Source of the DNA: a virus
Direction: 5' to 3' (one strand)
Virus genome (UHGV): UHGV-0104572
Length of the DNA stretch: 11,433 nucleotides
This document shows, one piece after another, positions 3,093 to 11,383 of this stretch. The number at the start of each line of letters is the position of its first letter. The stretch's first letter is position 1. A program made the translations under genes and the position numbers. The notes under the pieces were generated by a model that was given only the letters and a program-made list of their open reading frames with translations, was not told the origin of the DNA and did not search any database.

Positions 3093-3161
3093 GTCGTTAA
3101 TTCCTATGCGTGGTTTTACGATATCGAAGCCCTGACTGTTCCCGCAGTTGGGGCTTCAACT

Positions 3162-4980: not shown

Positions 4981-6198
4981 CTACTGCCGGGTCGCTTCGT
5001 TAGCTAAGAGCGGGCGCACGGCAGTAGCAGCCTGATTTAGCGCTCTTTCATAAGCTGGCGTTCCAGCTTTAGTGTTTGCCAGACGTAAGAGCGCATTCCT
5101 TGCTGCTTTGGACTCATACAAACGCATCATTGCACCAAAACCAGCCTCAAGCCCCATTGATACTCCAAGAGTCGCAGTTGCGCCAATCGTCCTTATCCTG
5201 TTGGCTTGTGATTGCCCCGTCTGAGTTACTACATTTGCGGTGTCTGACCTTGCTGTTTGCTGTAGAACTTCATGAAGAGCATCGAGCTCTTTCATGTGCT
5301 TTCCAGAAAAAATAGTGTTGTAAATTTCACCGCCTGACTGAGATTTAAGCTTATTAACTTCAGTGATGAACTTGGCTGGAGAGTCACCGGCCTTTTCCGC
5401 TATTTTGCTGACGTAAGCTGCACGCATAGCATCTTTCCCTTTATCATCCAATGCGCTCCAGATTCGTTTCACGTCAGATGGTTTTCTGCTTAATACAACG
5501 GTATTTATAAGTTCAGGACTGGCTTCACTGCTTGCCTTGTTGAGCTTGTTAGCAATGTTTTTATTAAGCACCTTATTATAAACGTTTGCATAATCTGAAT
5601 TTGCTTTAAGGTATTTTGCTGCGTCTGATGCACCGAGGTTTTTAGCAACTGCGTTACGAAGGTCTTTTGACATTGCATTCTCTACCATATTGGTAGCTGC
5701 TTTTGCCTGGTTGGGGAAGACCATAGCATCTCCCTGAACATTAGATCTAAATGCTGTTCTGTGCTGACGCAAGAGATCAAACGTAACATCCAAATCAGTT
5801 GCAGGGTTTGCTAATTCTTCGCGTAGGTTACGCAAGGATGTAAGCAGGCTTTGATTGGCAGACGTCCCAAGCCGTTCCTGTCTTGCGATCGCTGTATTCA
5901 GAGCATTCATAGTGTTTGTGGTATCAACTGCGGCATTCCCCATTTTATTGGTGACGTCATTGATAACAGCGCCAGCGGCATCCTTCCGTCCCCTTAACGT
6001 GGTGGTCAGAGATTTCACCACATCATCCGGGTTGTACTCACCAAAACGGTCAAAATAATTACTTACCAACTTACTACGCGTTGCATATTGCTCCGCTCGC
6101 TTTGAGCCTGTCCCGAGCAAAGCCCCCTCGGCATTCGGGATGGCTGCATTTTGCGGTAAGCACGAACTCAGCCAGAACGACAAACAAAAGGCTATCAA
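4981..6198 (-). pseudogene. DNA ejection protein gp16-like, N-terminally truncated remnant
   Basis: 405-aa Ala/Asn/Lys-rich ORF on the same strand as the tailspike, immediately distal to the sieA-like gene, which is the position of gene 16 in P22. The first ~20 codons are antisense to the Q fragment, so the homologous part probably starts near 6130. Identification is by synteny and composition only. Confidence 0.4.
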
Positions 6199-6475
6199 CT
6201 ATCTGATGCAATTTGCACACAAGGTATCGGGGAAATACCGTGGTGTGGCAAAGCTCGAAGGAAATACTAAGGCAAAGGTACTGCAAGTGCTCGCAATATT
6301 CGCTTATGAGGATTATTGCCGTAGTGCCGCGACGCCGGGTGCAAGATGCAGAGATTGCCACGGTACAGGCCGTGCGGTTGATATAGCCAAAACGGAGCAG
6401 TGGGGGAGAGTTGTTGAGAAAGAGTGCGGAAGATGCAAAGGTGTCGGCTATTCAAGAATGCCAGCAATCAGCTAA
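6131..6475 (+). pseudogene. Q: Antiterminator Q (lambda-type), internal fragment
   Basis: [51 protein letters not shown]...CRDCHGTGRAVDIAKTEQWGRVVEKECGRCKGVGYSRMPA matches the central part of lambda Q as recalled. The N-terminal ~50 aa and the C-terminal part are missing, and the strand is inverted relative to what a collinear prophage would have. Confidence 0.8.
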
Positions 6476-8150: not shown

Positions 8151-8492
8151 ATGACACAATTTCAACTTGCATTAATCGCTAGAGAAGTTGATGGAGAAGT
8201 CATCCATCTTCGCACCAAAGACGGATACATCAATGCCACCGCGATGTGCAAGTCTGCGGGGAAGCTACTTGCTGACTATACACGACTAAAAACAACACAA
8301 GATTTTTTTGATGAATTATCACGCGATATGGGGATTCCCATATCGGAGTTAATTCAATCATTTAAAGGCGGAAGAGCAGAGAATCAAGGGACTTGGGTTC
8401 ATCCAGACATCGCAATTAATTTAGCTCAGTGGCTATCTCCAAAATTTGCAGTGCAAGTATCGAGATGGGTGCGTGAGTGGATGTCAGGTTAA
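8151..8492 (+). CDS. KilA-N domain protein in the rexAB slot
   Basis: 113 aa; AGGA lies 6 nt before the ATG. The segment GYINATAMCKSAGK...GTWVHPDIAINLAQWLSPKFAVQVSRWV matches my recollection of the KilA-N signature (GT[WY]VHP..A...A.W.SP.F...V). It starts 31 nt after the cI stop, where lambda carries rexA. Confidence 0.65.
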   Translation: MTQFQLALIAREVDGEVIHLRTKDGYINATAMCKSAGKLLADYTRLKTTQDFFDELSRDMGIPISELIQSFKGGRAENQGTWVHPDIAINLAQWLSPKFAVQVSRWVREWMSG

Positions 8493-8531
8493 AGAGCGCC
8501 TGCCGAACTCCCTATCCACCTTAAGCGGTAT

Positions 8532-8910
8532 ATGACAAACCGAGGCAGAGTTCCTCATACGCACTTTTCTATGCTTAATGAACTGACGTTTAACTTGGTT
8601 GCGCCACTTGAACAGGCCGGATATACGCTGCCAGAAAAAATGGTCCCTGATATTTCAGAGGGTAGGGTTTTCTCGCAATGGCTCCGTGACAACCGGGGGG
8701 TTGAGCCGAAGACATTCCCAACATATAACCATGAGTACCCAGATGGCCGGACATTCCCGGTACGTCTATACCCAAACGAATATTGCAGATTTCAAACAAT
8801 ACTTCAACGAAGTGTGGCTGCCTCAGTACGCTCCTAAATATTTTGCTGAACGAGACCAAAGGGCATTGACGTTGATTGAGAAAATCATGCTACCTGACCT
8901 TGATTCCTAA
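8532..8910 (+). pseudogene. Unknown ORF with a frame break (frame 0 for 8532-~8780, frame +1 onward to 8910)
   Basis: Two overlapping ORFs (8532-8837 and 8599-8910) each look protein-like only in complementary halves: ...RTFPVRLYPNEY in one, ADFKQYFNEVWLPQYAPKYFAERDQRALTLIEKIMLPDLDS in the other. The break is near 8778-8786, not at a homopolymer. The first half is in the same frame as the KilA-N ORF, separated by a single TAA and 13 open codons. Confidence 0.5.
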
Positions 8911-8918
8911 ATGTTATT

Positions 8919-9096: not shown

Positions 9097-9167
9097 AACC
9101 ATCTGCGGTGATGAATTATCTCTAGCGGTGTTGACATAAATACCACTGGCGGTGATACTAAACACAT
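9097..9167 (+). promoter_or_regulatory. OL3-OL2-OL1 operators and PL promoter
   Basis: OL3 9097-9113, OL2 9117-9133 (tatctctAgcggtgttg, one G>A versus lambda), OL1 9141-9157 (exact). PL -35 TTGACA 9131-9136 and -10 GATACT 9154-9159, reading rightward. Confidence 0.9.
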
Positions 9168-9227
9168 CAGCAGGACGCACTACTCACCAGGGCGGTGAAT
9201 ATACAACGATTCAAATATGAATCTACG

Positions 9228-9242
9228 GCGCTGACAAAGCGC
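9228..9242 (+). promoter_or_regulatory. nutL boxB (P22-type)
   Basis: GCGCUGACAAAGCGC is a 5-bp stem with a GACAA pentaloop, identical to the P22 nutL boxB as I recall it. It lies ~65 nt downstream of the PL start. I did not find a boxA upstream. Confidence 0.7.
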
Positions 9243-9370
9243 AATAACCAAAGTGAACTTTGGGGTGAATGCAGAAGCTAACCTTCTCGGCGGAGGCGCT
9301 TTGCAATGATTACGCTACCGGAGTTAGTCGCCCGGCTGTATTCACCGCCAAAGTTCACCAGGAGGTCTAT

Positions 9371-9538
9371 ATGACACGCAGAACTCAGTTCAAAGGCAAT
9401 TCACGTTCTCGTCGTCGTGAGCGTTTAAAGGCAAAGGCATTAGCTAACGGCGTACTGGCCCGCGAAGAAGCAATAAGTTCAGAAGTATTACACCGCCCTG
9501 CGCCATCATCAATGTTGCGGCGATCGGCATCACCTTAA
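9371..9538 (+). CDS. N-like antiterminator, C-terminally truncated (55 aa)
   Basis: AGGAGG lies 6 nt before the ATG at 9371. The arginine-rich motif GNSRSRRRERLKAKA resembles the P22 gp24 motif GNAKTRRHERRRKLAIE. Full N proteins are ~100 aa; the last ~15-30 codons here are recT-derived DNA read out of frame. Confidence 0.6.
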   Translation: MTRRTQFKGNSRSRRRERLKAKALANGVLAREEAISSEVLHRPAPSSMLRRSASP

Positions 9539-10236
9539 ACCCAGCCAGCAAACTTGCTTATCTAGTTCCGCGCGACGGCATGGTTTGCCTTGATATCAGT
9601 TATATGGGATTGCTCCATATTGCAATGGAGTCTGGTGTTATCTCATGGGGTCAGGCAAAACTTGTTCATGCTAACGATACCTATGAGTCAAACGGGCTTG
9701 ATAAAGCACCAACCCATAAATACAACGCCTTCGGTGATCGTGGTGATATCGTTGGCGTTTACTGCACAGTTAAGACGCCAGCAGGTGATTATCTAACGGA
9801 AGAGATGAGTCTGGCTGAAATTGAGGCTGTAAGGAAAACAAGCAAGGCGGCATTCAGCGATAAAGGACCATGGGTAAATCACTGGAATGAGATGGCGCGA
9901 AAGACGGTCGTAAAGCGTGCAAGCAAGTATTGGCCTAAGGCATCACGTCTTGATAGTGCTATTCACGTACTAAACGAAGAAGAAGGTGTATGGACTGAAC
10001 CAGTTATGCCGTACAAATCAGAGGAAGATATCCGCGAAGATGAACGGAAACGCCAGCAGGAAATAACGGATAAAGCACAACTTCTTTGTGATGAAATGGC
10101 TCAGGCAGAAAACATGGATGATTTGAAGCGATATTTTGCAGAAGCATATCGCCTGACATCTGGAATGAAATTGCAGCATAACGTACAAGCCATTTACATA
10201 GAATGCAAAGCGAAACTGGAGGTTGCCAGTGAGTAA
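9448..10236 (+). pseudogene. recT: RecT-family recombinase, 5'-truncated remnant
   Basis: The frame is open from 9448. CAIINVAAIGITLNPASKLAYLVPRDG aligns with E. coli RecT SAIVQCSQLGLEPGSALGHAYLLPFG, and KGPWVNHWNEMARKTVVKRASKYWPKA with NGPWVTHWEEMAKKTAIRRLFKYLPVS. The N-terminal part is absent and there is no start codon or RBS for the homologous region. Confidence 0.65.
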
Positions 10237-10711
10237 ACTATATGAAATAGCCAATGAATACGCAAAATTGATGGATTCAGATTTAGAGCCAGAGATGATT
10301 GCTGACACAATAGAAGGCATGGAAGGAGAATTTACCGATAAAATAGAGCAACTTCTTTCCGTCATTAAAAATGAATCTGGTTATGCTGAACGCCTCAAGG
10401 AAGAGGCAAAGTCACTGAATGAGCGAGCCGCAGTAATTCAAAATAAGATTGACAGCATCATATCATATATAGCGTCATCGCTTGAAATGGTAGGCAAGAA
10501 AAAGATTAGAGCAGGTATTCACCAGGTAACAATCCGCAAACCGTCAGAAATTGTAGAAATAATCGACTCAAGCGCCCTTCCTCCTGAATACGTTGAGTTT
10601 GAAACAACAATTAAAGCCGACAAACTGGCAATCAAACACCAACTAAAAGCAGGAATAAATATCCCCGGCGCTCAACTCAAAGTTGGGAAACCTTCACTTC
10701 TTATCAAATAA
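10229..10711 (+). CDS. Siphovirus Gp157-like coiled-coil protein
   Basis: GGAGG lies 7 nt before GTG 10229, overlapping the recT stop. The ~160-aa protein has a charged coiled-coil N-terminal half and a C-terminal ...PPEYVEF...KAGINIPGAQL segment, resembling the Gp157 family often found next to recT/erf. Family assignment is from memory. Confidence 0.5.
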   Translation: MSKLYEIANEYAKLMDSDLEPEMIADTIEGMEGEFTDKIEQLLSVIKNESGYAERLKEEAKSLNERAAVIQNKIDSIISYIASSLEMVGKKKIRAGIHQVTIRKPSEIVEIIDSSALPPEYVEFETTIKADKLAIKHQLKAGINIPGAQLKVGKPSLLIK

Positions 10712-10774
10712 CGGTATCGCCTATGAAAAAGACTCCATGGGAGAAATGGGAAGTCGATTTCTTGCGCGAAGTAG

Positions 10775-11383
10775 CGGCGACAAGGCCATATAACAACAAA
10801 CCCTGTCGCTGCCACTCGCGCAGCAAAATCAGAGGTAAGGAGATCAAGACTTACGGCTGACGAATACCTGAAAATTTATCAAGCAGCAGAATCATCACCA
10901 TGTTGGCTCAGACTTGCAATGGAACTGGCTGTTGTTACCGGGCAGCGAGTTGGTGATTTATGCGAAATGAAGTGGTCTGATATCGTAGATGGATATCTTT
11001 ATGTCGAGCAAAGCAAAACAGGCGTAAAAATTGCCATCCCAACAACATTGCATGTTGATGCTCTCGGGATATCAATGAAGGAAACACTTGATAAATGCAA
11101 AGAGATTCTTGGCGGAGAAACCATAATTGCATCTACTCGTCGTGAACCGCTTTCATCCGGCACAGTATCAAGGTATTTTATGCGCGCACGAAAAGCATCA
11201 GGTCTTTCCTTCGAAGGGGATCCGCCTACCTTTCACGAGTTGCGCAGTTTGTCTGCAAGACTCTATGAGAAGCAGATAAGCGATAAGTTTGCTCAACATC
11301 TTCTCGGGCATAAGTCGGACACCATGGCATCACAGTATCGTGATGACAGAGGCAGGGAGTGGGACAAAATTGAAATCAAATAA
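10775..11383 (+). pseudogene. int: Integrase (lambda Int-type) remnant, C-terminal catalytic domain only
   Basis: From ~10784 the frame reads GHITTNPVAATRAAKSEVRRSRLTADEYLKIYQAAESSPCWLRLAMELAVVTGQRVGDL...HLLGHKSDTMASQYRDDRGREWDKIEIK, about 98% identical to lambda Int from residue ~168 to the end, including the catalytic Tyr in SQYRDD. An in-frame TAG at 10772 and unrelated upstream sequence replace the arm-binding and core-binding domains. Confidence 0.9.

Follow-up and report, generated by a model that had tools for sequence, protein, structure and literature searches.

How did an N-like reading frame come to stop after 55 codons, with its last codons lying in recT DNA that is read in the wrong frame? 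We examined this question in the UHGV virus genome UHGV-0104572, an 11,433-nt stretch of DNA that we call the window and to which all coordinates refer. An initial annotation, drawn up from the nucleotide sequence, had proposed that a deletion joined early N to mid recT. Our analysis shows that the junction exists in the DNA itself and has been passed down vertically as a scar; it was not created by assembly, and it does not belong to an N that is natively short. We interpret it as the fixed scar of a microhomology-mediated deletion in a cryptic lambdoid prophage, which occupies the lambda att site in one E. coli clone, and we put the probability of this reading at roughly 0.93. The relevant features are as follows.

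9097-9159, plus strand: OL3-OL2-OL1 and PL, lambda type (alignment to lambda; promoter scan 10/12)
9228-9242, plus strand: boxB of nutL, H-19B/P22 type, GCGCTGACAAAGCGC; hairpin predicted, same as in H-19B
9360-9365, plus strand: Shine-Dalgarno sequence AGGAGG of N, 5 nt upstream of ATG 9371
9371-9499, plus strand: N-derived part of the truncated N ORF (N'), codons 1-43 of a 127-codon H-19B-type N, with the Arg-rich motif at residues 12-18
9500-9501, no strand: deletion breakpoint, 2-bp microhomology AC (GC in the window itself)
9502-9538, plus strand: alien tail of N', recT DNA out of frame, ~11-12 codons, ending in TAA 9536-9538
9502-10236, plus strand: truncated recT (recT'), codons 57-300 of a 303-codon RecT, native start absent
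10229-10711, plus strand: gp157 (Gp157 family), intact, following recT as in HK140
10782-10788, no strand: second deletion junction, 7-bp overlap, joining DNA downstream of gp157 to about int codon 157
10919-11383, plus strand: truncated int (int'), C-terminal 154 codons of a lambda-type integrase, ~156 codons lost

The junction between N and recT

The N' ORF starts at ATG 9371, runs for 55 codons to TAA 9536-9538 and encodes MTRRTQFKGNSRSRRRERLKAKALANGVLAREEAISSEVLHRPAPSSMLRRSASP. Residues 1-43 were identical to those of the 127-aa N protein of phage H-19B, including the Arg-rich motif 12-RSRRRER-18. The initial annotation had described this ORF correctly as N-like, with a strong ribosome-binding site (AGGAGG, 9360-9365), an Arg-rich motif and 55 codons. 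It had also taken N to be P22 gp24-like, which did not hold: the allele is that of H-19B and the Stx phages, even though the boxB does not differ from that of P22.

We compared positions 9100-10300 with 50,697 phage records by megablast. Homology changed abruptly at 9499/9501. The left half (9165-9499) was ~98% identical to H-19B, BP-4795 and many Stx phages (E values of 1e-162 to 1e-165), and the slightly longer stretch 9162-9499 matched the nutL-N region of H-19B/Stx-type phages at 98-99.5%, the upper figure being for E. coli strain 81 and the lower for H-19B. The right half (9501-10300) was 97-98% identical to recT and the gene after it in HK140, mEpX1, Gally, Kapi1 and others (E value of 0), and ~98% identity to the recT-gp157 region of HK140-type phages extended over 9501-10788. 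None of the 50,697 records spanned both halves.

At the junction, N codon 43 is followed by recT codon 57 with a frame offset of one base. N codons begin at positions 2 mod 3 and recT codons at positions 1 mod 3, confirming that N' ends in recT DNA translated in a different frame. Stops at 9418 and 9445 interrupt the recT frame, which, as had been noted, is open from 9448. Its protein was identical to HK140 RecT 57-300 at 240 of 244 positions (98%), the alignment beginning at A57, which corresponds to window position 9502. Homology to recT was traced upstream of 9580 and reached 9500-9502 in both DNA and protein. Alignment to full-length N and RecT thus placed the breakpoint at N codon 43 and recT codon 57. 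Of the earlier proposal that a deletion joined early N to mid recT, the deletion stands, whereas "mid recT" does not, as the cut at codon 56/57 of 303 falls within the first fifth of the gene.

The breakpoint was located by comparison with the closest alleles on either side. The N allele of E. coli strain 81 and phage PhiR5_2 reads ...CACCGCCCT[AC]TCTAAG, and the recT allele of the WCHEC040047 prophage and vB_EcoP-683R2 reads ...GCACAGA[AC]GCCATCATC. Their cores are CCCT[AC]TCT and CAGA[AC]GCC, respectively, and the junction is CCCTACGCC; in eleven relatives it reads ...CACCGCCCTACGCCATCATC. As the closest N and recT alleles share AC at 9500-9501, the crossover occurred inside a 2-bp microhomology, with no filler. 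The A-to-G change at 9500, carried by the window and two of its relatives (L004 and L011), is later than the junction and changes N' residue 44 from T to A.

Intact relatives carry a full N (127 aa) and a full RecT (303 aa) with early-left genes between them. In these phages, 2.1 kb (HK140), 2.6 kb (vB_EcoP-683R2) or 2.9 kb (WCHEC040047 prophage, at the same att site) separate N nucleotide 130 from recT nucleotide 168; the lost length of ~2-3 kb is therefore bracketed by three relatives and not by the exact ancestor. The stretch between the breakpoints varies by phage and holds the rest of N, sieB, ral, cIII, kil and small ORFs, as well as the ORF directly upstream of recT. The proposal that the rest of N and everything between the two genes had been removed agrees with this comparison.

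Carriers of the junction and decay of the surrounding prophage

The same junction was present in at least 13 further assemblies or loci, comprising isolate genomes, gut-metagenome scaffolds (80-340 kb) and one Logan contig (L004 to L014) and two IMG/VR contigs (L015 and L016) that hold the same prophage remnant. Among the carriers were two chromosome-size contigs (5.2 and 5.3 Mb) and E. coli SCD1, in which the two fragments are annotated as RecT and "phage antitermination protein N". One locus, L011, was 100% identical to the whole window. Exact-protein look-ups placed the 218-aa RecT' on 266 contigs and the majority N' variant, which has T44, on 199. The exact junction 30-mer, including the derived G at 9500, had no match in IMG/VR, GTDB representative genomes or JGI metagenomes; with R at 9500, the 30-mer matched two IMG/VR contigs and had no match in GTDB representative genomes.

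Ten loci reach past the remnant, and all ten have ybhC after the truncated int, as on the gal side of the lambda att site (the sequences of L004 and L013 stop short of this point, and that of L014 stops within int'). The host gene order ybhC-ybhJ-ybhI-ybhH was found in nine of the ten and continued to ybhD-pgl in eight. Relative to L011, eight loci showed at most 2 differing positions in 8.8 kb of host flank, and the same eight had 1-3 substitutions in 4.1 kb of the remnant, with four additional single-base gaps in L009. The attL core lies ~25 nt past the right end of the window, and lambda P-arm/sib-like sequence lies to its left. A host other than E. coli was considered and rejected, the host flank being 99.9% identical to E. 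coli. The shared site and near-identical flanks indicate that the carriers are one clone in which the scar has been inherited vertically. A native 55-aa N with the same C-terminus was sought in independent phages, and every carrier turned out to be the same remnant.

The window comprises essentially the whole remnant. On the minus strand it carries, in order, the tailspike gene, ant, arc, a truncated gp16, cII and cro; on the plus strand it carries mnt, sieA, an inverted lambda-Q fragment, a lambda-type cI, a KilA-N/BstA-like gene, PL-nutL-N', recT', gp157 and the truncated int. The cI gene is full length. The element is a cryptic lambdoid mosaic, with lambda immunity and integration site, an H-19B nutL-N region, HK140 recT-gp157 and P22-type late genes. 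The P22-type immI region (ant, arc and mnt), sieA and the 672-aa tailspike gene appeared intact in this otherwise gutted prophage. A sar antisense RNA was identified at 3094-3161, between ant and arc (Rfam RF00262, 81.8 bits); this match in the immI region was the only one in Rfam, and nothing was found at the N-recT junction.

The N-recT junction is one of several lesions. The deletion between gp157 and int, whose junction lies at 10782-10788, removed ~3.9 kb including xis compared with the intact prophage L018 and was common to all relatives; no xis was called in the remnant. In 4981-6475, a P22 gp16 truncated at its 5' end adjoins the lambda-type Q fragment, whose position on the strand opposite to cro and cII implies an inversion. 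The window also lacks 4.6 kb that is kept in L005-type relatives, with a junction at 6129-6134 and a 6-bp overlap. Three relatives (L007, L008 and L010) carry differing, independent deletions in the gp16-Q area. As the N-recT and int junctions occur in all relatives while the deletions in the left half vary, the shared junctions are older, and decay is continuing within one clone. The overlaps at all three junctions that we examined measured 2-7 bp.

The gene downstream of cI, at the position of rexAB, is a bstA-like (KilA-N/BstA-like) pseudogene (8151-8912). Compared with the intact 253-aa gene of PhiR5_2 (L021, 6413-7174), it is interrupted by a nonsense change (G to T, 8490) and has lost 2 bp at 8782. 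The resulting pseudogene calls (113 aa and 55 aa) recurred in nearly all clonal relatives; the 113-aa call was present in E. coli strain 81 too, where a call of 112 aa comes after it.

A related remnant is present in E. coli strain 81 itself (L003, NZ_CP088131.1), with immI, gp16, cI, KilA-N and N 98-99% identical to those of the window. It is located elsewhere (argW/intS) and has its own gp16-cI deletion, an ISSen4 insertion and a longer N. Being differently deleted at another site, it indicates that the same modules are decaying independently elsewhere.

The cryptic lambdoid prophages Rac, DLP12 and Qin of E. coli K-12 have likewise lost early-left and integration/replication genes by deletion. 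The remnant resembles them in being chromosome-anchored, in having several truncated genes (N, recT, int, gp16, Q and the bstA-like gene) and in having kept its immunity; it differs in its lambda att site by ybhC and in combining lambda immunity with a P22-type immI and tailspike. We found no earlier account of this remnant, and it does not occur in the 5,426 complete RefSeq E. coli genomes. Scars of this type are common in cryptic lambdoid prophages, and although this one appears not to have been described before, nothing about its kind is unfamiliar. Colinear flanks, an abrupt change of homology, extra genes between the breakpoints in relatives, a single chromosomal site and other lesions in the same element were all found at this locus, as is characteristic of a deletion scar.

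The early left promoter and the two truncated products

The initial annotation had held that PL, OL and nutL are intact, and this was borne out. PL consists of TTGACA (9131-9136) and GATACT (9154-9159) with 17-nt spacing; PL and OL1 match lambda exactly, and OL2 and OL3 have one mismatch each. Downstream of PL, the N' transcript carries its cognate nut site, with a boxB 15-mer that is the P22 boxB of PDB 1A4T (PMC11480772) and is predicted to form a hairpin. The lambda-type OL/PL gives way to the H-19B-type leader at a conserved CATCAGCAGGACGCACT. This combination also occurs in the viable phages PhiR5_2 and mEp234, so the boundary reflects natural mosaicism rather than damage. In two relatives (L005 and L014), a C-to-A change at 9158 turns the PL -10 element from GATACT into GATAAT, nearer to consensus.

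The leader was predicted to be strongly structured (z score of -5.6 for 9166-9375). Between boxB and the N start, a long and very stable predicted stem (9243-9370) would sequester sequence as far as the Shine-Dalgarno region and is reminiscent of the RNase III-sensitive N leader of lambda. No intrinsic terminator was predicted between PL and ybhC. Without a functional N, Rho-dependent termination is to be expected in the untranslated recT' stretch.

We next considered what N' may still do. In H-19B N, the Arg-rich motif comprises residues 12-18, and mutation of R3, S11, R15 or R18 abolishes function (PMC3526286); all four residues are present in N', and the nutL leader and boxB are the same as in H-19B. 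The C-terminal domain of H-19B N (~88-127) binds RNA polymerase and is the site of the suppressor L108F, and deletions within 88-127 abolish antitermination at a distance from nut (PMC3526286, PMC4499122). N' lacks this domain: its homology to N stops at codon 43-44 of 127, and residues 44-127 (84 residues) are replaced by ~12 unrelated ones. Judged from this comparison, N' is probably unable to make RNA polymerase processively termination-resistant. The NusA-binding region of lambda N comprises residues 34-47, and its counterpart may be cut or partly kept in N'(1-43). In Pfam, N' scored 24.8 bits with N_peptide (PF25694, lambda-N family), under the gathering score of 27.9, and a PDB sequence search with N' gave no match. 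Two "members" of the N' protein clusters, of 829 and 367 aa, were unrelated proteins that we set aside as clustering noise.

In several other E. coli assemblies, the same N allele is truncated or frameshifted after residues 25-45 (proteins P0004, P0007, P0008, P0010 and P0012). Damage to N appears to be common among resident lambdoid prophages; contig ends or sequencing errors may account for some of these examples.

The alternative that fares best, though we consider it very unlikely, is that N' has been retained as a functional mini-N, which would act locally at nutL or serve in trans as a nut-RNA decoy against incoming H-19B/Stx/P22-type phages, a crude means of exclusion or regulation. The integrity of PL, OL, boxB, the structured leader, the Shine-Dalgarno sequence and the Arg-rich motif, with every residue known to be essential in H-19B N (R3, S11, R15 and R18; PMC3526286), is compatible with this idea, yet intactness upstream of the junction is expected anyway in so young a clone. 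H-19B N that has been deprived of its C-terminal domain can still impede Rho in the vicinity of nut (PMC3526286), which makes a local effect of N' at nutL conceivable. However, the published C-terminal deletions removed at most ~40 residues (PMC3526286), and the constructs thus kept far more of the protein than N', which misses 84. Moreover, the intact cI and operators would keep PL off, so that no N' would be made in the resting lysogen, and infection by a heteroimmune phage would leave PL repressed. Of the few SNPs in the remnant, one changes N' residue 44, and the truncation of the same N allele at differing points in many other E. coli assemblies is what decay predicts.

A related form of this alternative, in which the PL-nutL-RBS-Arg-rich cassette has been kept for a useful N' made under SOS conditions, either as a boxB decoy or as a local anti-Rho factor, seems to us just as improbable. 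If the decoy version were true, N' would disturb the N-dependent expression of co-resident or incoming H-19B/Stx/P22-type phages; if the anti-Rho version were true, PL transcripts would pass through recT'-gp157-int' into host ybhC. HK022 Nun, which serves in exclusion, is like N' a small, prophage-encoded protein whose Arg-rich motif at the N terminus binds boxB RNA (PMC4124055). Nun, however, is made in the lysogen and stalls RNA polymerase through a C-terminal region dedicated to this task, whereas N' ends in a random out-of-frame tail and lies behind a repressed PL; the likeness is conceptual only.

Returning to the deletion scar, its other product is also incomplete. The first start in the recT frame is ATG 9580, equivalent to M83, which would give a 218-aa protein; ATG, GTG and TTG are absent between 9448 and 9580, and no good Shine-Dalgarno sequence was found before ATG 9580. 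At its other end, recT' stops three codons early (10234-10236), where CAA (Q301) has become TAA compared with L018 and HK140, a change that is synonymous in the overlapping gp157 frame. Compared with the 303-aa RecT (RecT/Redbeta) of HK140, mEpX1, Gally and Kapi1, recT' is followed by the same Gp157-family gene but has lost codons 1-56, together with the native start and the partner ORF that lies upstream. A programmed -1 frameshift fusing N' to RecT' was considered and rejected, as the only slippery heptamer, T TTA AAG (9424-9430), precedes the recT-frame stop at 9445.

The structural consequences were assessed by alignment to the RecT of a Listeria phage (LiRecT, 7UB2), in which V98 (beta1) aligns with HK140 RecT V78. 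The N-lobe of LiRecT (residues 34-109) consists of an alphaA-alphaC bundle and a beta1-beta2 hairpin; this lobe provides the upper hydrophobic interface between subunits and holds the annealed duplex in a clamp (PMC9772228). With codons 1-56 deleted, the N-lobe of RecT' is incomplete: the deletion takes most of the three-helix bundle, and a start at M83 would also cost beta1. On this alignment, RecT' is very probably inactive as an annealase. The earlier view that both proteins are probably non-functional thus held for processive antitermination and annealing, whereas for N' a residual local RNA binding is possible (PMC3526286).

Could the 218-aa RecT' from ATG 9580 nevertheless form a still active recombination module together with Gp157? 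The ORF is open, it matches the Pfam RecT profile (PF03837; 103.2 bits, cut-off 24; profile positions 36-186 of 198), gp157 downstream is intact, and the protein is identical on 266 contigs. This identity, however, reflects clonality and not constraint, and the lack of both a Shine-Dalgarno sequence and the alphaA-alphaC bundle with beta1, i.e. the N-lobe and upper subunit interface of the filaments (PMC9772228), leaves the idea with a very slim chance. Slimmer still is the chance that the junction is an assembly or chimera artefact in which two phage-like repeats were wrongly joined: lambdoid modules do repeat within genomes and are prone to misassembly, and none of the 5,426 complete RefSeq E. 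coli genomes carries the junction, but it is identical in the 13 or more other, independently assembled records, with the same flanks in ten loci, and the majority N' is recorded on 199 contigs.

Origin and meaning of the deletion

For the deletion scar, we propose the following course of events. Illegitimate recombination of the RecA-independent type, at the 2-bp microhomology, would have taken out ~2-3 kb, comprising the last two thirds of N, the intervening early-left genes and the first 166-168 nt of recT. Judging from the relatives, the early-left genes lost probably included cIII, kil, sieB/ral and small ORFs. PL would stay repressed in the resting lysogen; after cI derepression, the transcript would carry nutL and a well-initiated 55-aa N'. 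This product would keep the boxB-binding Arg-rich motif but lose the RNA-polymerase-binding domain, and processive antitermination would be gone. With its own start and ribosome-binding site removed, recT' would yield at best the 218-aa product from ATG 9580.

An element that cannot excise, with int truncated and no xis called, is dangerous to its host when PL fires, and the simultaneous loss of kil and of a functional N would relieve this danger, in keeping with what is known of lambda. The loss of kil and of a functional N would make derepression of this non-excising prophage less harmful, which is a plausible reason why the deletion persisted. Neutral decay fits its persistence equally well. 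Over 4.1 kb of remnant sequence there are only 0-3 SNPs, so the clone is too young for selection to be told apart from drift.

Both ORFs should be annotated as pseudogene fragments of one deletion event, whereas some records now call them "antitermination protein N" and "RecT". The locus is a case of ordinary prophage decay; it raises no new biological question and matters little beyond annotation. Within that scope, it offers a tidy, datable example of stepwise prophage decay in one E. coli clone, usable as a lineage marker or a teaching case.
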